Shown here one piece after another: positions 5,082-47,427 of a stretch of DNA of 64,000 bases. This DNA comes from Candidatus Vogelbacteria bacterium. Lineage in GTDB: Bacteria > Patescibacteriota > Minisyncoccia > Phycocordibacterales > XYD1-FULL-46-19. The stretch is taken from positions 101,198-165,197 of the forward strand of contig CAIPHT010000006.1 in NCBI GenBank assembly GCA_903864935.1, given 5' to 3'. The number at the start of each line of letters is the position of its first letter. Position 1 is the first letter of the stretch. A model generated the notes under the pieces. That model did not search any database and had not been told where the DNA came from. It was given only the letters and a program-made list of their open reading frames with translations. Position numbers and translations under genes: made by a program.

Positions 5082-6461
5082 ATGGCCGTCAACAAACAAC
5101 CTTTTGCTAACAAGCAACCCTTCAACACCGGGACAAAATTAAGGATCCCGCCCAATGATAATGAGGCCGAGCAGGCCCTCTTGGGTTCGGTCATGATTAG
5201 CCCCAAGAGCTTGGGTGAGATTGCCGACTTCTTGAAGGCCGAGGACTTCTATTCTATTCGTCATCACAAAATTTATAATGCTATGCTCGACTTGGCCGAC
5301 GTGGGTCACCCGGTGGATATTGTCTCTGTGTCGTCTAAGCTCAAAGACAAGGGGCTCTTAGAGAGTGTCGGCGGTTCGAGTTATATTGCCGAGATTGCCG
5401 GTAAGGTTCCCTCCGCTTCAAACATTGGCCACTATGCCGAACTCGTCCACAAGAAGTCGGCTCTCCGTAGTCTCATCAGCTCAGCCGACGAGATCTCCGA
5501 ACTCGGTTATCACGAGAGCGAAGATGTCAGTGACGTACTTGATCGCGCGCAGAAAATTATTTTCAATCTTGGTTCTTACGCTACTAAAAAAATCACTAAT
5601 CTTAAGGATGCCTTGGCTGAGGCTTGGGAACGCTTCGACCACTTGAGCAAAACTGAGGGCGAGATTCGCGGTGTCTCGACTGGCTTCAAAGGTCTTGATG
5701 ACAAGCTTGCTGGTCTACAAAAATCCGATTTAATTATCTTGGCCGCTCGCCCATCTATGGGTAAGACTTCTCTCGCGCTAGACATCGCTCGCCATGCTGC
5801 TTGTCGCAACAAGGTACCGACCCTTATCTTCTCGCTCGAAATGAGCACCCAACAATTGACCGATCGCCTACTCTCCGCCGAGAGCTTTGTCGATTCATGG
5901 AAGTTGCGCACCGGTGCCATTCGCGCCGATGAAGATTTTGCCCGTTTGCGCGACGCCTTAGATTCACTTGCCCAAGCGCCCATCTTCATTGACGATGAGC
6001 CATCCAATAATATTTTGCGTATGAAGTCCGAAGCTCGCAAGCTTAAGGCCGAGCACGGCCTAGGGCTCATTGTGGTGGACTACCTCCAACTCATGGTCCC
6101 CCGCACGCAATCTGATTCGCTCGTGCAACAAATCACTGAGGTCTCTCGTTCCTTAAAAGCTCTGGCTCGTGAGATTGATGTGCCGGTACTCGCCCTCTCT
6201 CAGTTGAACCGTGCTGTTGAGCAACGTGGTGGCAAGCCTCGCCTCTCTGACCTCCGTGACTCTGGATCCATCGAACAGGATGCCGACGTCGTGCTCTTCA
6301 TCCACCGCGAGAAAGATGAGAATAGCAACGAGAAGAATAGCCTCGCCGAGATCATGATCGAGAAGCACCGCAATGGCCCCACCGGTAAGGTGGACCTCTA
6401 CTTCGACGCCCAACGCACCAGCTTCTCGGATATTGAAAAGGGCGATTTTGGAACTTTTTAA
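5082..6461 (+). CDS. dnaB: replicative DNA helicase DnaB
   Basis: N-terminal EAEQALLGSVM, Walker A ARPSMGKTS, RecA-like C-terminal domain; 459 aa. Confidence 0.95.
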   Translation: MAVNKQPFANKQPFNTGTKLRIPPNDNEAEQALLGSVMISPKSLGEIADFLKAEDFYSIRHHKIYNAMLDLADVGHPVDIVSVSSKLKDKGLLESVGGSSYIAEIAGKVPSASNIGHYAELVHKKSALRSLISSADEISELGYHESEDVSDVLDRAQKIIFNLGSYATKKITNLKDALAEAWERFDHLSKTEGEIRGVSTGFKGLDDKLAGLQKSDLIILAARPSMGKTSLALDIARHAACRNKVPTLIFSLEMSTQQLTDRLLSAESFVDSWKLRTGAIRADEDFARLRDALDSLAQAPIFIDDEPSNNILRMKSEARKLKAEHGLGLIVVDYLQLMVPRTQSDSLVQQITEVSRSLKALAREIDVPVLALSQLNRAVEQRGGKPRLSDLRDSGSIEQDADVVLFIHREKDENSNEKNSLAEIMIEKHRNGPTGKVDLYFDAQRTSFSDIEKGDFGTF

Positions 6462-15371: not shown

Positions 15372-15383
15372 GGGGGGGGGGGG
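15372..15383. repeat. homopolymeric G12 tract followed by tgaagttggacctcgcc
   Basis: 12 consecutive G, directly 3' of the stop of gene 15401..16084 (minus). A similar G10+tgaatttcaacctcacc sits at 19888-19915. Confidence 0.8.
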
Positions 15384-19887: not shown

Positions 19888-19897
19888 GGGGGGGGGT
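19888..19897. repeat. homopolymeric G10 tract
   Basis: 10 consecutive G between the direct repeat and the stop of gene 19918..20190. Confidence 0.8.
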
Positions 19898-42329: not shown

Positions 42330-43580
42330 TTATTTAACAATCTCAATTAATTCTTCTAAATTAACCATCCTCACTTCCCCACTCTGCCTTTCTTTAAGTT
42401 CGAAGCCCCCACTCGCCAGAGTCTTATCAGAAACAATAACCCGATAAGGCATGCCGAGCAAATCGGCATCAGCAAATTTCTCGCCCGCCCCCAGATTGCG
42501 ATCATCAAAGAGAACTTCGATCCCCAACTCACTAAAAACTCGGTATAAGTCTTCGGCCTCTGTATAAGCCTCACCACCCTCTGTCCCTAAAGCAACTAAG
42601 TGGACAGTAAATGGAGCAATATTTCGAGGCCAGACCAAACCGCGATCATCAGACATAACTTCAGCAATAGTTCCCATAAGACGGTCAACTCCGAGACCAT
42701 AACTCGCACCGATAGCCGGTTTTGTTTCTCCGTTTTCATCGATAAATTTTAGCCCCAAAGGCTCGGTATACCTTGTACCCAGTTTAAAAATATTGCCTGT
42801 CTCAATAGCTTTCTTCTCAACAAGATCGTCCATCCCGATACCAAATTCAGCTAAAATTTCTTCATCCAAGACCTCCTTGTTAATCGCAAATTTTTTCTCT
42901 TCATTGACATAGATAGTATCTTCACCCGCTTCAGACAAAGTTTGAAACTCATGGCTATACTTACTAAAAATACCGCCGCTAGCAAAAGTAAAATAAGTTA
43001 GCTCACCCAAGCCGACTCTCTCAAAGACCCTTTCATAAGCACCCTTAACTTTATCGTAGTAATCATTTAGGTCTTCTTCGTTGGCGTGGAAAGAATACAA
43101 ATCTTTCATCGTGAATTCTCGCCCACGCATAATACCACTCTTCGCTCGAATTTCGTTGCGAAATTTCTTCTGAATCTGATAGACAGACATTGGCAAATCT
43201 TTGTACGAACTGACGTGCCCGACAAGCATAGCCGTGATAGCTTCTTCATGAGTTAAACCCAAACCAAGCTTGCCACCAGATTTTAATTCTGTTTTAAACC
43301 AGTTATCAACAACTTCGTCATCCCAACGATTGGTCTTCTCGTAAAGTTCTGGATTCTGCAAGGTTGTCATCTGGACCTCAAGTCCTCCGACGGCATTCAT
43401 TTCTTCGCGAATAATATTTTTTATTTTTTCTAGGACAATAAGACCAAGAGGCAAGAAGGTGTAAACTCCAGCTAATTCTTTGCTAATAAAACCCGCTCGA
43501 ATTAAGAGTTTGGCATTCTCAGCCACCTCATCTTTAGGCGCTTCGCGCCTTGTTTTAGTAAACAATTGAGATTGTCGCAT
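42330..43580 (-). CDS. proS: proline--tRNA ligase (short form lacking the editing insertion)
   Basis: Class II motif 2 FRNEIRAKSGIMRGREFTMKD; C-terminal anticodon-binding domain; 416 aa. Confidence 0.9.
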   Translation of the reverse strand: MRQSQLFTKTRREAPKDEVAENAKLLIRAGFISKELAGVYTFLPLGLIVLEKIKNIIREEMNAVGGLEVQMTTLQNPELYEKTNRWDDEVVDNWFKTELKSGGKLGLGLTHEEAITAMLVGHVSSYKDLPMSVYQIQKKFRNEIRAKSGIMRGREFTMKDLYSFHANEEDLNDYYDKVKGAYERVFERVGLGELTYFTFASGGIFSKYSHEFQTLSEAGEDTIYVNEEKKFAINKEVLDEEILAEFGIGMDDLVEKKAIETGNIFKLGTRYTEPLGLKFIDENGETKPAIGASYGLGVDRLMGTIAEVMSDDRGLVWPRNIAPFTVHLVALGTEGGEAYTEAEDLYRVFSELGIEVLFDDRNLGAGEKFADADLLGMPYRVIVSDKTLASGGFELKERQSGEVRMVNLEELIEIVK

Positions 43581-43613
43581 ATGCCCCCATCTTAACCCAA
43601 AAGAGGAGGGGGG

Positions 43614-44612
43614 TCAAAGAACACCAATTTGCTCAATCTGCCGTTTTAAACCATACCCATTACCCCACCCCAGCATCCCCAAATATGATTGTAATATCTC
43701 CTCTTTACCACCGGCTTCTCTAATCTTCTTAAACATCCTTCTCTTGGTCGAAGTCCGCAAAACACAATGTTTATAGAAATGCACCCAGCCCAAAAAATCA
43801 ACGCCCGAAGAGAGCGTCTTGATGTAAACTTTATCAGGGTGCAGTTTTAGTTTAAGTTTTTCTGCTAGAAATTCGTCAACCTCAGTGAGAAGCTTTTCTA
43901 AATACTTTTTGTCACTCGACATAATCACAAAATCATCAGCATAACGGACATAATATTTAACTTTAAGCTGATGCTTCATAAATTGGTCAAAATCATTCAT
44001 GTAGATATTTACTAAAAGTTGCGAGGTCAAATTACCCAAGGGTAGACCTTTGCCTCTTTCAGTGCTGTGGAAACTTACAATAACTTGCTCAAGTAGCCAG
44101 ATAATATCAGGGTCTGGTTCAAACTTCTTCAAGATTTTAATCAAAACCTCGTGATCAATTGAAGCAAAGAACTTGCGCACATCACATTTCAAGACCCAAC
44201 AGGCCTGCGTATTGTTTTGTGAGACCTTCCGCCCAAATTCGGCAAATCGTTTAATTGCTCGGCGCGTGCCTTTGTTTAGACGACAAGAATATGAATCAAA
44301 AACAAATTTAGGGTTGAAGTGATAATACAGAACCCGATAAATAGCATGATGGAGTAGACGATCACGAACCGTGGCCTTGTGGATATCACGCGGTTTGGGA
44401 TCAGAAATTTTGAAGGCTTGATAAGAGCCATGGGCATAAATTTTGTTTTTGAGATCAGAATGGAGGGCAATGATATTACTCATGAGATTTCTCTCAAATT
44501 CTTGAACATCTTTTTTAGATTTTTTGTCTCTGATGAATTCCCGCCAAGCGCCTAGCAAATTATCAAGCGAGATGATATCCTCATATTTATGGATAAATTG
44601 AATTTTTCTCAC
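43614..44612 (-). CDS. reverse transcriptase of a diversity-generating retroelement (DGR RT), GTG start
   Basis: RT motifs: LPLGNLTSQLLVNIYMNDFD (DGR-type (I/L)GxxxSQ, not group II QGxxxSP), YVRYADDFVI (YxDD), KT...FLGW. 332 aa. TR/VR pair nearby. Confidence 0.85.
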   Translation of the reverse strand: MRKIQFIHKYEDIISLDNLLGAWREFIRDKKSKKDVQEFERNLMSNIIALHSDLKNKIYAHGSYQAFKISDPKPRDIHKATVRDRLLHHAIYRVLYYHFNPKFVFDSYSCRLNKGTRRAIKRFAEFGRKVSQNNTQACWVLKCDVRKFFASIDHEVLIKILKKFEPDPDIIWLLEQVIVSFHSTERGKGLPLGNLTSQLLVNIYMNDFDQFMKHQLKVKYYVRYADDFVIMSSDKKYLEKLLTEVDEFLAEKLKLKLHPDKVYIKTLSSGVDFLGWVHFYKHCVLRTSTKRRMFKKIREAGGKEEILQSYLGMLGWGNGYGLKRQIEQIGVL

Positions 44613-44625
44613 ACAACCAATAATA

Positions 44626-44634
44626 CCCCCCCCC
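44626..44634. repeat. homopolymeric C9 (G9 on the coding strand) in the RT 5' leader
   Basis: 9 consecutive C at 44626-44634, 14-22 nt upstream of the GTG start of the RT on the minus strand. Confidence 0.8.
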
Positions 44635-44733
44635 GCAAAATTACTACCACTTCTTCAGTATCTCAAATCAGCCTATCTTCTGTGGCATCAATATCACCAG
44701 GTTCTTCCCAAGGTTGAGCGGTTTTCTCTAGGT

Positions 44734-45006
44734 TTGAGAGTTGATAATTTATTTATTGAAACAATAGAAGCGGTTGCCAGTGCCTCTTTTTTGTCTCCAG
44801 TCGACAAGGCACCTTATGTTCGACTGGCCATAAGAAAAATGGATACAATAAAAGTTTTGTTATTGGTTTTATGGGAAACAAGGTCTCTGGATACTAAAAA
44901 ATATGCGGCCATATCTGTAAAACTAGAAGAGATTGGCAAAATGCTCGGTGGTTGGAGTGGCCAATTGCTAAAACAAAACTCCCCCGCAAAAACGGGAGAG
45001 AAATGA
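44734..45006 (+). CDS. avd: Avd-like accessory variability determinant (four-helix-bundle protein), non-ATG start
   Basis: C-terminus LEEIGKMLGGWSGQLLKQN resembles Bordetella bAvd IAEVGRILGSWIARVNRK. Frame open from 44602; first candidate start TTG 44734. Divergent to the RT and ends 5 nt before the TR. Confidence 0.45.
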   Translation: MRVDNLFIETIEAVASASFLSPVDKAPYVRLAIRKMDTIKVLLLVLWETRSLDTKKYAAISVKLEEIGKMLGGWSGQLLKQNSPAKTGEK

Positions 45007-45010
45007 AGGA

Positions 45011-45127
45011 GTTGCGGAAGGCAAACCAATCGTAGGAGTTGTCGAAGTTCTCGATCCAGTTGAGATTCGCCTTGCGCTTCGAGTCGTTCCACCAGACATA
45101 GCAGGCGTTGCGGTTGCCCTCGAAGGA
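45011..45127 (-). repeat. DGR template repeat (TR), 117 bp
   Basis: Aligns gap-free to 45495-45611 with 11 mismatches, all at T on the + strand (A on the sense/minus strand). Encodes an Asn(AAC)-rich segment if translated. Confidence 0.85.
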
Positions 45128-45490
45128 ATTGTGCGTGAGACTATCCGTACCACTGCCCTTTGAATACTCTCGGGGCTGTATATTATTCGGCATCTCTTCC
45201 AATAGAATTACTACTGGATACAATGCCCTAGTGACTCGCACCAAGTAGCTTCATTTTTTGTGAAGTGTCTGCATACATCACTCTATCCGAAACCGTAGTC
45301 GCGAATATTCTCAATGTATGGATACTGGATTCGGTAGAGAGAAACCGTAGTCGCTCACATATTCACCTACTACCACCAACTATCTTACCATAACTAATAC
45401 GAGCTCGGTATCCGCCAAAGCGAACACCGAGCCCAAGAGCTGAAGACCGAGGCCAAAGAACAGAAGTTCAAAGAGGCCCAGGCTTAAGGT

Positions 45491-46111
45491 CTACTTGCGG
45501 AAGGCAAACCAAGCGTAGGAGAAGTCGAAGACCTCGATCCAGTCGAGACCCGCCTCGCGCATCGAGTCGTTCCACCAGACATAGCAGGCGTCGCGGTTGC
45601 CCTCGAAGGAACAATCCGTCGTGGCCACCACGTACATCGGATTTTGCTCGAGCTGTTCGTGAAGCTTCGGGTGCTGTTCGCCAACGGCGAAGACTTCGCG
45701 CGGGTTGGTCCGCTTAAGGCCGTGAGCTCCCGCCCACACATTGGCCTTGTCCCAGTTGCCGTCGCCCTTCGGGAAGTTGAGAAGGATGAGTTCCTCCTCG
45801 ATGACTTCCCCGCCGACCGACGGATACTGACCGCCAACCTTGCGGACATTGTAGCTATCCGGCGTGTCGGGGCCAGCGGCACTCACGGCATCTTGCCACT
45901 CACGGCTCTGATCAACCTTGACCCTGAGAACGTGGACGCGCGCGCCTTCCGGCGGAGCAATGCCCCCCGATTCAAGTTTGAGAGAGTCGAGGAAGTGGCC
46001 AAAAGAACCGTCGTCGATGGCTTGCTGAAAACGATCACGACCCACCTGTTTCTCGTTGGCGATTTTGCGGAGACACTCCGCCTGGCTAACTGTTACGGGC
46101 TTGCGACTCAT
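45491..46111 (-). CDS. DGR target protein with C-terminal variable (C-type-lectin/FGE-like) domain
   Basis: C-terminus ...FEGNRDACYVWWNDSMREAGLDWIEVFDFSYAWFAFRK is encoded by the VR; GC about 58%. Confidence 0.8.
   Translation of the reverse strand: MSRKPVTVSQAECLRKIANEKQVGRDRFQQAIDDGSFGHFLDSLKLESGGIAPPEGARVHVLRVKVDQSREWQDAVSAAGPDTPDSYNVRKVGGQYPSVGGEVIEEELILLNFPKGDGNWDKANVWAGAHGLKRTNPREVFAVGEQHPKLHEQLEQNPMYVVATTDCSFEGNRDACYVWWNDSMREAGLDWIEVFDFSYAWFAFRK
45495..45611 (-). repeat. DGR variable repeat (VR) at the 3' end of the target gene
   Basis: Same 117-bp alignment. VR codons differ from TR only where the TR sense strand has A (AAC>GAC/GGC/GTC/TTC, AAG>ATG/GAG, GAC>GCC). Confidence 0.85.
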
Positions 46112-46287
46112 AACTTCACCTTGCCTTTCTCTCCTTTGTGTCTACCCTAAGACGCCGAGACAGTCGGTATCACGGGCGGACAAACTCAATGTACATACCT
46201 TGTGATTATACACCTAAATAGCCCTGCCTGTCAATAGCAGAAGGTAATCTCCCCCGAGACTAAGTCTCGGGGTAAAATAAGGCTATT

Positions 46288-47427
46288 TTACAACAATTTA
46301 GCAATATCGCTCACGGCGATGATTATCATAAGAAGGATGAGAAGGACAAAGCCAATCATATTAAGAGCGTTGGCAATTGAGGGCTTAATCGGTCGGCGAA
46401 TTATTGCCTCAATAGCCACAAAGAGGAGACGTCCGCCATCCAAAGCTGGGAAGGGCAAGAGATTAATAATCGCCAAATTAATGGAGATCACCACCATAAA
46501 GTTAAGCACATAGACCAAACCCATCTTGCTCGCGTCATTCATTAGACTATAAATACCAATCGGACCAGAAACGGCCGCCAGAGCTCCTCGGCCTTCAGTA
46601 AAAATCATGGAGAAGAAATCACCGAAGGACAAGAAGGTATTGATGATCATGTGATAAGTAAAATATAGACCATAGAAAGGCGCTTGCCACCAGGCGGCCG
46701 AGACCAAACCAATCTTCTGCATCGCGATACCAATCATGGCATCGCTACTAGAACTGTTTGTTTTAGGAATAACCGTCGCAAAAGAAGTTGTCGCCAAAGC
46801 ACCCTTGCGTGAATATTCTACCTTCACTTCTTGATTGGGAAATCTCTTAACAAAATTACGCACTGAGTCAGCTGACAAGTCTGTCGCCTTTTCCTTCCCT
46901 GAAAATAGCGAAAGTAATTGATCTCCTGACTTAAGACCACCAAGGGCGGCCGGTGAATCTTTAAGCACATTGACCACCGCCAACATTTCACGATGAACAG
47001 TCATGCCCACTGGCACTCCCCCGTCGGTGGCAATTGGCATACCAATCATTAGATTGATAGAAATAAGAATCCAAGCAAAAATTAAGTTGAAACTGACCCC
47101 CGCCGCTAAGACCAAAGCTTGCAGCCATTTGGGCTTATTCACAAAAGAGCGAGCACTATCAGGACCATTCGTATTCTCTTCATTAGGATCTTCGCCAAAA
47201 ATTTTTACAAAACCGCCAAAGGGCAACCAATTGAGCGAATAGATAGTCTCGCCAAATTTCTTACCCACGGCGCGGGGTGGCAAACCAAGACCAAATTCAT
47301 CAACGCGAATCCCGCCGAGCTTGGCGACAATAAAATGCCCAAACTCGTGAGTAAGGATTAAGAGAGCGAGGACGATGATGAAAAGTACTATAGTCATTTT
47401 ATTTTTTAATTTAATCTTTTGAGCCAA
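46288..47427 (-). CDS. rseP: RIP metalloprotease RseP (site-2 protease, M50) with PDZ domain
   Basis: HEFGHFIVAKLGG (HExxH), PDZ segment, LDGG motif near the C-terminus. Confidence 0.85.
   Translation of the reverse strand: MAQKIKLKNKMTIVLFIIVLALLILTHEFGHFIVAKLGGIRVDEFGLGLPPRAVGKKFGETIYSLNWLPFGGFVKIFGEDPNEENTNGPDSARSFVNKPKWLQALVLAAGVSFNLIFAWILISINLMIGMPIATDGGVPVGMTVHREMLAVVNVLKDSPAALGGLKSGDQLLSLFSGKEKATDLSADSVRNFVKRFPNQEVKVEYSRKGALATTSFATVIPKTNSSSSDAMIGIAMQKIGLVSAAWWQAPFYGLYFTYHMIINTFLSFGDFFSMIFTEGRGALAAVSGPIGIYSLMNDASKMGLVYVLNFMVVISINLAIINLLPFPALDGGRLLFVAIEAIIRRPIKPSIANALNMIGFVLLILLMIIIAVSDIAKLL

Follow-up and report, generated by a model that had tools for sequence, protein, structure and literature searches.

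A predicted structured RNA domain upstream of the template repeat in a putative diversity-generating retroelement of Patescibacteria

Results

The locus described here lies between rseP and proS in a 64-kb window, by which we mean the whole stretch of DNA that was analysed. It carries, in order, a target gene ending in a variable repeat (VR), a template repeat (TR), an avd gene on the reverse strand and a reverse transcriptase (RT) gene. Judging from its sequence features, it is almost certainly a chromosomal diversity-generating retroelement (DGR) of the CPR/Patescibacteria clade. The genes for RRF, the M50 protease, the target, the RT and ProRS also share a single contig in another assembly. 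The same cassette order is found at loci L012, L017, L018, L021, L023, L024, L026, L028, L039, L056-57, L060-64, L066-67 and L069, and each of these loci, like that of the window (WIN), has an A-biased TR/VR pair. L063 is a circular assembly of 2.67 kb, which may be an episome, a tandem array or an artefact. The original prediction treated the divergent orientation of avd as an oddity, and this view has to be given up. TR (45128-45012, minus strand), avd (44614-45006, plus strand) and RT (44612-43614, minus strand) follow one another as in architecture B3, 'TR-(avd)-RT'. Wu et al. 2018 (PMC5758913) assign 90% of CPR DGRs to this layout, and every related cassette examined has it too.

The TR (45012-45128, minus strand) is 117 nt long and contains 28 adenines and six AAC codons. 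The VR (45495-45611, minus strand) forms the last 38 codons of the 206-residue target, which ends ...CYVWWNDS...AWFAFRK, as had been stated. A base-by-base recount and an independent repeat search both recovered the gapless 117-nt alignment with 11 mismatches that had been predicted (91% identity, offset 483). The predicted VR coordinates were exact and those of the TR (45011-45127) were one base off; at the offset of 484 that they imply, the alignment collapses to random. All 11 mismatches are T on the plus strand of the TR, that is, A on the minus (sense) strand, so the claim that they are confined to TR adenines survives the recount. The hypergeometric chance of this outcome, given 28 adenines in 117 nt, is 2.5e-8. 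In the target frame, 11 of the TR adenines occupy codon position 1, 17 occupy position 2 and none occupies position 3. The 11 changes fall in 8 codons, and each of these is altered non-synonymously.

DGRs carry an IMH at the end of the VR, a non-identical IMH* at the end of the TR, and a downstream inverted repeat. Here, TR and VR end in the same G+C-rich 18 nt and diverge directly after CGCAA, and the nearest strong inverted repeat lies 59 nt downstream of the VR and is terminator-like. No further VR-like copies were found within the window, even when every A was left free to vary. At L001, a 124-nt repeat considered as a second TR/VR pair proved to be a duplicated promoter and leader whose changes are not A-specific.

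The RT (43614-44612, minus strand) has 332 residues, a GTG start and the motifs LGNLTSQ and YADD. Its assignment to the DGR type is upheld by structure-database searches, in which the best PDB match is 8ub7_A, a 328-residue Bordetella phage DGR RT (E 1e-39). The alignment is full length (residues 11-313) and spans the IGSLTSQ and YMDD motifs of 8ub7_A, whereas group II or retron-type RTs in the PDB reach E 1e-22 or worse. In Pfam the protein matches RVT_1 (1e-27). Its identity is 59-63% with the RTs of eight related B3 cassettes, and 52% with the L056 RT.

The avd homologue (44614-45006, plus strand, opposite to the RT) matches NCBIfam DivGenRetAVD at 51.9 bits (below the cut-off of 80; E 7e-14; profile positions 7-102 of 104) and Pfam bAvd at 36.3 bits (below the cut-off of 40; E 8e-9). 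Orthologues in relatives are 49-68% identical. The original prediction described a 90-residue ORF within this frame (44734-45006); its TTG start, its end 5 nt before the TR and its likeness to Avd all hold, and only its extent was misjudged, as it is a truncated reading of the gene. The frame is open from at least 44614 and homology runs from about 44662, with the first ATG, GTG or TTG only at 44734. Homology begins at least 24 codons upstream of the TTG, and no canonical start covers helix 1. Relatives start avd at a TTG within 'LLPLLQ', a stretch that reads TTA CTA CCA CTT CTT here. A run of nine C (44626-44634), which reads as G9 on the RT strand, lies between avd and the divergent RT gene and is 13 nt away from the start of the latter, on its upstream side. 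All related cassettes keep 7-11 consecutive G at this avd-RT junction, always as CCC codons on the avd strand, and the run is a candidate SD-like element or slippage tract.

The target gene (45491-46111, minus strand) encodes 206 residues, made up of an N-terminal three-helix segment and a C-terminal domain that is modelled as a C-type-lectin-like fold. About 118 homologues occur in Patescibacteria. Sequence searches of Pfam, NCBIfam and the PDB returned no matches to the target, including none to the CLec-fold variable proteins Mtd, TvpA and archaeal AvpA, and a Foldseek search against the PDB gave nothing significant. Compared with those proteins, the target is only 206 residues long and its three-helix segment is private to it. 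Two earlier descriptions of the gene proved sound: the product lacks a signal peptide, having no hydrophobic N-terminus and a maximum 19-residue Kyte-Doolittle mean of 0.57, and the gene is GC-rich (0.60 vs 0.43 for its surroundings). This enrichment was considered as a by-product of A-to-N mutagenesis and that explanation was rejected, as A and T are depleted to similar extents at third codon positions and the shift extends over the whole gene. Gene calls in other assemblies are fused; a UGA-recoding code is an unlikely cause, since table 11 gives every neighbouring gene a normal length.

Upstream of the target gene is a predicted promoter, TTGACA-18-TATAAT (46205-46234, minus strand), that matches the sigma-70 consensus at 12 of 12 positions, and a 'ctattgaca' box is conserved upstream of homologous targets. 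The 5' leader that follows (46112-46198, minus strand) contains an irregular 15-bp hairpin (46181-46140) and then the SD. An nhmmer search places the leader immediately before target homologues at about 36 loci, and gives a single occurrence in the window. RNAalifold predicts 15 pairs, 8 of them with compensatory changes, and 93.8% of the alignment cells pair, compared with 33-47% when partners are slid. The leader has no match in Rfam.

The whole interval between VR and TR is conserved among related loci. It contains a terminator-like hairpin of 16 pairs and a T-rich tail after the target gene (45400-45435, minus strand), and an equivalent hairpin and T-run stand at the same place in 13 related loci. 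An extended -10 box follows, TGGTAAGAT (45382-45390, minus strand), as a candidate promoter for a non-coding RNA (ncRNA) that contains the TR. The pattern TGnTAnnnT is kept in 14 of 14 loci, roughly 15-20 nt before the start of the conserved RNA, and we infer that transcription of the ncRNA begins from this box.

The remainder of the interval, up to the TR, is a 5' domain (45129-45375, minus strand) with 10 predicted helices, and it is highly probable from its covariation that this is a structured RNA. A 14-locus alignment of the domain has 60 pairs, 41 of them compensatory. Paired cells amount to 94.6%, compared with 37-46% when partners are slid, and 127 cells carry double changes, compared with 38.8 in shuffles. 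A covariance model (R1), which used 132 positions out of the 241 of the full domain, found one match in the window and ten in further loci, always ending at the TR. The model found the domain absent from about 70 loci with more distant DGR RTs. In an alignment of 21 sequences, 21 of 24 pairs were compensatory, including 10 of 12 in helix H8 (45241-45230 with 45142-45131, minus strand), which stops 2 nt short of the TR. This helix begins with the base that also closes a near-invariant UACUUGG (45247-45241, minus strand). No Rfam 15 family matched 44940-45400 or 43400-46500, even at E values up to 10.

A second, long-range duplex is predicted between the AAAUGAAG element of the 5' domain (45256-45249, minus strand) and CUUCAUUU (45001-45008, minus strand), immediately 3' of the TR. 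RNAalifold recovered it on the whole RNA. It is 96.4% paired and has 3 compensatory pairs (in L021 and L039), a result matched by 2 of 500 shuffles. By-eye comparison finds the same long-range topology, made of unrelated sequences, in L001, L056, L060, L061 and L062. A local CUUC/GAAG hairpin competes with this duplex, and covariation is seen in both. We judged the duplexes at the TR flanks from alignment-based counts; unconstrained RNAduplex scans gave noisy ranks, because the 3' hairpin strand finds alternative partners. Pairing of an upstream motif, GGUGGUGG, with the antisense of the Avd 'MLGGW' codons was also considered as a cPRT-Stop duplex. It was set aside: the two sequences could pair, but they do not covary and the z-scores fall short of significance.

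On the 3' side of the TR, a terminator scan identified a 9-bp stem-loop with a tetraloop (45000-44979) followed by UUUUGUUUUA (44969-45000 in all, minus strand). The stem-loop is present in 14 of 14 related loci and its inner stem covaries. Of 278 DGRs with Avd, 207 are predicted by Handa et al. (10.1101/2023.10.23.563531) to have stem-loops directly following the TR on its 3' side, most commonly with 9 bp and a tetraloop cap. We infer that the element here is a stem-loop of the Avd-binding type, an intrinsic terminator of the TR RNA, or both.

Discussion

Thousands of DGRs have been catalogued, and the one described here is of a kind already reported from the ultra-small CPR/Patescibacteria bacteria. 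In DGRs generally, an RT-Avd complex copies a TR-containing RNA and misincorporates opposite adenines. The resulting cDNA would here replace the VR and recode the ligand-binding face of the target at up to 16 codons. We regard the identity of the locus as a DGR, the structured RNA domain and the general DGR mechanism, taken jointly, as very likely.

As a DGR, the locus is ordinary. The CPR clade and the reversed-avd layout have been published, and CPR targets without domains are a known puzzle. In DGR clade 2 of Roux et al. 2021 (PMC8144416), CPR targets typically have neither TM nor other recognisable domains. Set beside the CPR DGRs of that study and of Wu et al. 2018, the locus has the same gene order, the same reversed avd and the same host group, its relatives being named Taylorbacteria, Nomurabacteria, Vogelbacteria and Patescibacteria. 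The context is likewise chromosomal and non-phage, and the target is likewise small, without TM segment, signal peptide or Pfam domain, and with its VR at the C-terminus. There is no difference in kind; the locus and its 206-residue target family are further members, with an avd that here lacks a canonical start.

Three observations go beyond this. First, the 360 nt that separate VR from TR are no mere 'spacer': they include a terminator, an extended -10 box and a covarying RNA domain of about 245 nt. Second, a conserved and structured 5' leader precedes the target coding sequence. Third, the loss of a canonical avd start, together with a VR that four assemblies share unchanged, raises the possibility that this copy is quiescent. 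The original prediction called the DGR complete. All of the parts it named were found; it overlooked the structured RNA that bears the TR, and completeness does not imply activity.

The case for quiescence, to which we give even odds, is built on the missing avd start and on a VR that is unchanged between strains that differ elsewhere. One of the four assemblies with the identical VR has 7 substitutions in the other 846 nt (of 963 nt; about 0.7% diverged), although these are consensus assemblies, which can mask VR heterogeneity within a population. The only known VR variant, in P0001, is W201G, a T-to-G change that is not at an A site. To contrast, in a sister lineage three populations (at least 90% protein identity) share one TR, and their VRs differ at 15-20 A sites, which speaks for DGR activity within the family.

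A somewhat less favoured alternative, though still a serious one, is that the DGR is fully active, with Avd made from a non-canonical start (ATA at 44620 or 44623, or CTG at 44692) and the VR diversifying now. Throughout the region of homology, the avd frame is free of frameshifts and stops. The RT motifs and all RNA elements are likewise intact, the latter with scores like those of relatives. Retrohoming has taken place, as shown by the 11 A sites at which VR and TR differ. However, both TTG codons that relatives could use as starts are replaced here, and ongoing diversification sits poorly with the shared VR of the four assemblies and with W201G as the sole variant. A frozen VR and a start-less avd beside the hypervariable VRs of close relatives offer a natural on/off comparison.

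To our knowledge, the RNA of Bordetella phage BPP-1 is the only DGR RNA that is understood structurally. In the large CPR clade, antisense avd lies downstream of the TR, so the site of the priming and stop functions had been unclear. The covariation reported here singles out the 245-nt upstream domain, along with two predicted duplexes that clamp the ends of the TR. We lean slightly towards the view that the 5' domain is a priming/stop scaffold. In this model, a discrete RNA of about 400 nt would begin from its own extended -10 box and run through the multi-helix 5' domain and the TR to the 9-bp stem-loop and U-run. One contiguous segment of the 5' domain, AAAUGAAG - UACUUGG - GUGCGAGUCACU, would pair with both TR flanks. 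Its first part would pair just 3' of the TR, like the BPP-1 template:primer duplex, which would place the conserved linker at the initiation site. Its last part would pair just 5' of the TR, like the 'cPRT Stop' duplex that ends cDNA synthesis; both comparisons follow the BPP-1 RNA as described by Handa et al. The RNA may then be a circular permutation of the BPP-1 RNA, with the priming/stop module upstream rather than downstream of the TR, an arrangement that fits with antisense avd on the downstream side.

The BPP-1 DGR (mtd-avd-TR-brt) and this one share an RT that is homologous over its full length, an Avd homologue, adenine-specific differences between TR and VR and, going by the modelled fold, a CLec-type target. 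Directly 3' of the TR, both RNAs carry a tetraloop-capped stem-loop of about 9 bp (10.1101/2023.10.23.563531), and in both, duplexes clamp the TR ends via one contiguous strand, as judged here from covariation. The two differ in layout. In BPP-1, a 140-nt spacer separates TR and RT and contains the strand that pairs with both TR flanks; here avd takes the place of that spacer, on the opposite strand and downstream of the TR, and the strand predicted to pair lies about 110 nt upstream of the TR, in the 245-nt 5' domain. The TR RNA here also appears to have its own promoter and terminator. Finally, the BPP-1 target is a phage tail fibre, whereas the protein here is small and looks soluble and cytoplasmic.

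Structured RNAs beside bacterial RT genes have been described before, as Rfam motifs RT-1 to RT-19, of which RT-10 is the BPP-1 TR-RT spacer RNA (Weinberg et al. 2017, PMC5737381). The present element resembles these in its position beside an RT gene, and at least one of them comes from a DGR. It differs in having no Rfam match and in lying upstream of the TR, not between TR and RT. RT-10 gave no match here at E values up to 10, and the TR-RT interval is occupied by antisense avd. As far as we have checked, the ncRNA family is absent from Rfam and apparently undescribed; its 5' domain may already be in Paul et al. 2017.

The conserved 245-nt region could instead be separate from the DGR RNA, either as an independent small RNA or as a regulatory 3' UTR or leader that travels with the cassette. 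It has its own -10 box, a terminator stands before it, and it is kept in loci that have lost the RT (L003, L005 and L052). We think this unlikely. The region always ends 2-6 nt before a TR, occurs nowhere else in the window or in 570 kb of loci, and accompanies TRs of unrelated sequence (L001, L060, L061 and L066). H8 and the long-range duplex pair with both TR flanks, and there is no terminator between the region and the TR.

In its broader form, the priming/stop model extends to the CPR DGR clade: there, the TR would reside in a structured ncRNA that is autonomous, measures about 400 nt and corresponds to the BPP-1 DGR RNA in circularly permuted form, with the initiation and stop strand in the 245-nt upstream domain. 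We offer it tentatively, with confidence a little short of even. In several genomes (L003, L005 and L052), the ncRNA, TR and target are found as a module without an adjacent RT. As the module has its own putative promoter and terminator and survives in this form, it might also be served in trans by RT-Avd encoded elsewhere.

It is vanishingly improbable that the TR and VR are an ordinary duplication beside an RT of a group II intron or retron: group_II_RT_mat is the top NCBIfam model for the RT (146.8 bits), because no DGR RT model was returned from NCBIfam, but this score is far under the model's cut-off of 300 (the retron model reaches 62.9 against 235), the E value of the PDB DGR RT is lower by 17 orders of magnitude than those of group II or retron-type RTs, Rfam searches gave no group II intron or retron RNA, and both the A-only mismatches (P 2.5e-8) and the adjoining Avd speak against a non-DGR RT. 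Besides the TR-containing RNA, the leader conserved upstream of the target coding sequence is another candidate for a regulatory RNA.

The cassette and its relatives

The diversity-generating retroelement (DGR) of the window belongs to the CPR clade with architecture B3. This architecture, TR-(avd)-RT, has the template repeat (TR) first and an avd gene that is read from the reverse strand; it made up 90% of the CPR set of Wu et al. 2018 (PMC5758913). The window cassette differs from CPR B3 DGRs in no defining feature. It sits among housekeeping genes, with frr and an rseP-like M50 protease gene on one side and proS and mreB on the other. Related loci were fetched through the target gene (55) and through the reverse transcriptase, RT (80). 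Whenever a cassette is complete and its RT is 44% or more identical, it has the order target-VR, then TR after a gap of 350-480 nt, then reversed avd and RT; each of these cassettes (the window's own, L012, L017, L018, L021, L023, L024, L026, L028, L039, L056/57, L060-64, L066, L067 and L069) has an A-biased TR/VR pair. L067 and L069 carry two target genes per cassette; a single TR matches the VRs of both, and the differences are A-biased.

The only long direct repeat that a repeat search returned for the region pairs 45012-45128 with 45495-45611 (117 nt, 91% identity), in agreement with the original prediction of an ungapped TR/VR pair with 11 mismatches. The TR coordinates of that prediction were one base too low: the true offset is 483, and at the offset of 484 that those coordinates imply, TR and VR fail to align. 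The mismatches had also been said to be confined to TR adenines of the sense strand, and a recount of A versus non-A sites confirmed this, as 11 of 11 are T on the plus strand, or A on the minus strand that codes for the target (P = 2.5e-8 for 11 random mismatches all falling on A, given 28 A among 117 TR bases). In the target frame, these 28 adenines fall 11 times on codon position 1, 17 times on position 2 and never on position 3, and six TR codons are AAC. The 11 changes alter 8 codons, every one of them non-synonymously. No further VR was found in the whole window when both strands were scanned with each TR adenine free to vary.

The target gene (45491-46111, minus strand) encodes 206 aa with no sequence match in Pfam, NCBIfam or PDB. 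Its 118 homologues are 205-225 aa long, the named ones come from Candidatus Taylorbacteria or Paceibacterota, and variability lies mostly within the last 38 residues. An AlphaFold model built with 31 sequences has a pLDDT of 86.5. The N-terminus contains no hydrophobic stretch, which bears out the predicted lack of a signal peptide and agrees with the CPR clade-2 targets of Roux et al. (PMC8144416).

In 15 of 16 loci, the G+C content of the target gene is far above that of the host and stays at 0.50-0.60 regardless of a host value of 0.32-0.53; in the window its GC3 is 0.73, against 0.33-0.56 in neighboring genes. The G+C content of RT and avd is like that of the host. A-to-N mutagenesis does not account for this shift, which is not specific to A. 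A leader (46112-46198, minus strand; hairpin 46181-46140) lies between a perfect sigma-70 promoter and the target SD and is also present 5′ of target homologues in about 36 loci. Of the 15 pairs in its hairpin, 8 are compensatory, and the strand is fixed by several G-U pairs. The leader has no Rfam match and is a candidate cis-regulatory RNA.

The RT (43614-44612, minus strand, 332 aa) matches Pfam RVT_1. Its best relative of solved structure, ahead by 17 orders of magnitude, is 8ub7_A (328-aa chain), the bRT of Bordetella phage BPP-1. The alignment spans residues 11-313, with G+P+G+LTSQL and RY.DD among its blocks, supporting the earlier assignment of a DGR-type RT. An NCBIfam search of the RT returned no DGR RT model, and the top match was a group II maturase at 147 bits, far under the cut-off of 300.

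On the plus strand, the avd frame stays open from 44614, or further upstream, to its end at 45006. Two family models match the frame, NCBIfam DivGenRetAVD (over positions 7-102 of its 104) and Pfam bAvd, each with a score under its curated cut-off. The original prediction of a 90-aa bAvd-like ORF placed the start at a TTG (44734), and Avd homology begins about 24 codons 5′ of it. The orthologues of related loci have their start at a TTG within a conserved LLPLLQ, where the window reads TTA CTA CCA CTT CTT. With the TTG codons replaced, the window avd has no ATG, GTG or TTG before helix 1.

A C9/G9 homopolymer (44626-44634) lies between the divergent avd and RT genes, 13 nt ahead of the RT start. 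A G-run of 7-11 is kept at this junction in all related cassettes and may serve as an SD-like element or as a switch prone to slippage. Only two other G/C runs in the window reach a length of 9, a G12 (15372-15383) and a G9 (19888-19896), both intergenic and both followed by TGAAnTT..ACCTC.

A structured RNA that pairs with both flanks of the TR

The VR-TR interval was aligned from 14 loci. On the minus strand, a terminator hairpin with a T-run follows the target gene (45435-45400), and after it comes an extended -10 box, TGnTAnnnT (45390-45382), a putative promoter. From there, about 245 nt of conserved sequence runs unbroken into the TR. This 5′ domain is predicted to form 60 base pairs in 10 helices (RNAalifold), 41 of the pairs with compensatory double changes. 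Paired cells amount to 94.6%, against 37-46% with the 3′ partners slid by 1-3 columns, and double-change cells number 127, against 38.8 in shuffles; these MAFFT-based counts are free of model-fitting bias.

A covariance model of the TR-proximal half of the domain (132 positions) matches the window once, at 45270-45123, and also matches L038, L063, L069, L025, L061, L060, L001, L047, L034 and L066. In the loci with a mapped TR boundary (L060, L061, L063, L066, L069), the match ends within a few nt of the TR start. There is no match in about 70 loci with a DGR RT only 32-39% identical. In an alignment of 21 matches, which was fitted to the model and so leans towards structure, compensatory changes occur in 21 of 24 pairs. 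Helix H8, which comes to within 2 nt of the TR with the end of its 3′ strand, contributes 10 of these from its 12 pairs. Rfam 15 gave no match at E up to 10 with either 3.1 kb or 0.46 kb submitted. Inside the domain, a 25-nt direct repeat (GAAACCGTAGTCGC..., 45289-45313 and 45341-45365, plus strand) represents two copies of GCGAYUACGGUUUC in the apical parts of separate hairpins, H3 and H5/H6, and may be a repeated protein-binding site.

Folding the whole RNA (45380-44956) adds a long-range helix between AAAUGAAG (45256-45249) and CUUCAUUU (45008-45001), the latter directly 3′ of the TR. This helix is paired in 96.4% of cells, has three compensatory pairs (L021 has AAAG/CUUU plus G-C replacing A-U, L039 has GAAA/UUUC) and is equalled in just 2 of 500 shuffles. 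Its GAAG has an alternative partner in a local CUUC, which would give a hairpin with an A-rich loop; because that CUUC has changed in step in L021 and L039, both conformations are plausible. The 5′ strand of H8 (45241-45230) begins 7 nt downstream of AAAUGAAG, after a near-invariant UACUUGG, and its partner is the 12 nt just upstream of the TR. Judging by these pairings, a single segment of the 5′ domain appears to hold both ends of the TR.

Distant cassettes have the same TR-flank pairing topology with unrelated sequences. In L056 and L062, the strand is GGGAUAAAACUAC-UUG-CUUGCUUUC; the partner of its first part is GUAGUCUUAUCCC, immediately 3′ of the TR, and that of its last part is GAAAGCGAG, immediately 5′ of the TR. 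L001 has an AAAUCA/UGAUUU pairing. In L060 and L061, the conserved motif contributes its ACUU to a pairing with AAGU at the end of the TR, adjoining AAAAGA/UCUUUU or AAUGAA/UUCAUU. Past the TR by 10-14 nt, all 14 loci have a stem-loop of 9-11 bp, mostly with a tetraloop, whose covarying inner stem is followed by UUUUG(U), a possible termination signal.

In BPP-1, cDNA synthesis needs the TR, 20 nt upstream and a 140-nt downstream spacer (Handa et al., 10.1101/2023.10.23.563531). The same study found that the spacer provides an Avd-binding stem-loop right after the TR and a primer strand with the priming adenosine at its end, and that the adjoining 'cPRT Stop' strand pairs with sequence upstream of the TR. 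Of 278 Avd-containing DGRs, including some of CPR origin, 207 were predicted there to have stem-loops immediately 3′ of the TR; their stems, capped by tetraloops, most commonly have 9 bp. The window RNA likewise has a stem-loop at the expected place. Unlike in BPP-1, a U-run and antisense avd follow it, and the putative 'primer strand - short linker - stop strand' module lies about 110 nt upstream of the TR. As the stem-loop is in place and the module is upstream, we propose that the RNA of this clade would be a circular permutation of the BPP-1 RNA, probably made as a discrete transcript of about 400 nt.

The RNA domain, target leader and G-run are features of the known CPR B3 kind. We found no description of them in Rfam, Wu et al., Roux et al. 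or the Handa preprint, nor in Weinberg et al. (RT-1 to RT-19 motifs) or by full-text searches of the literature.

Activity of the window copy

The family diversifies, as sister VRs differ at A sites under one TR. In the sister lineage nearest the window (target 77% identical), three populations with target proteins at least 90% identical share the same TR, and their protein differences lie mostly within the VR. In the two populations whose TR is complete (that of the third is cut short), the VR departs from the TR at 15 and 20 A sites and at 0-1 non-A position. In the window's organism, the VR is exactly identical in four independent assemblies, which are consensus sequences that can hide minority variants. 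One of them, L051, has 7 differences in the other 846 positions, 5 at synonymous sites of the target gene. The sole recorded variant, W201G in the target-protein record P0001, is a T-to-G change. Together with the missing avd start codon, the invariant VR suggests that the cassette was functional in the past and is now quiescent, although the window avd might still be translated from a non-canonical start.

Variant and partial loci

Many genomes keep the target, structured RNA, TR and last 28-85 avd codons with no RT nearby (L003/L004/L009/L029/L030, L005, L052/L053, L054). In L003, the module is followed by a Y1 (IS200-like) transposase gene, and 6133-6354 is an exact tandem duplication of 111 nt. 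In other loci (L034, L025, L022, L033), just fragments of the RNA domain or the RT are left. The RT-less modules reflect either repeated decay from the RT side or service in trans.

In L001/L006 (2433-4179, 5001-5621) and L007, an (avd)-RT pair adjoins a 206-aa-family gene. The pair has a diverged RNA domain of its own and a TR, encoding ...NFNFNIGNFENVWNDDNAFLCFC, that belongs to a different class and does not match the VR of the neighboring gene. A second copy of the target leader lies there ahead of a 91-aa Cys-rich gene.

In L048/L049, from the window's organism, public gene calls merge RT and ProRS (717 aa) and carry avd on through the TR to a length of 232 aa. As TGA is the stop codon of both genes, the gene caller apparently read UGA as non-stop, and these calls are an annotation artefact.

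L063 (IMGVR_UViG_3300031215_001417, 2797 nt) has an exact 125-nt overlap of its ends and therefore assembles as a 2.67-kb circle. The circle holds only RT, promoter, target, structured RNA with TR, and reversed avd; it may represent an episome, a tandem array or an artefact of assembly.
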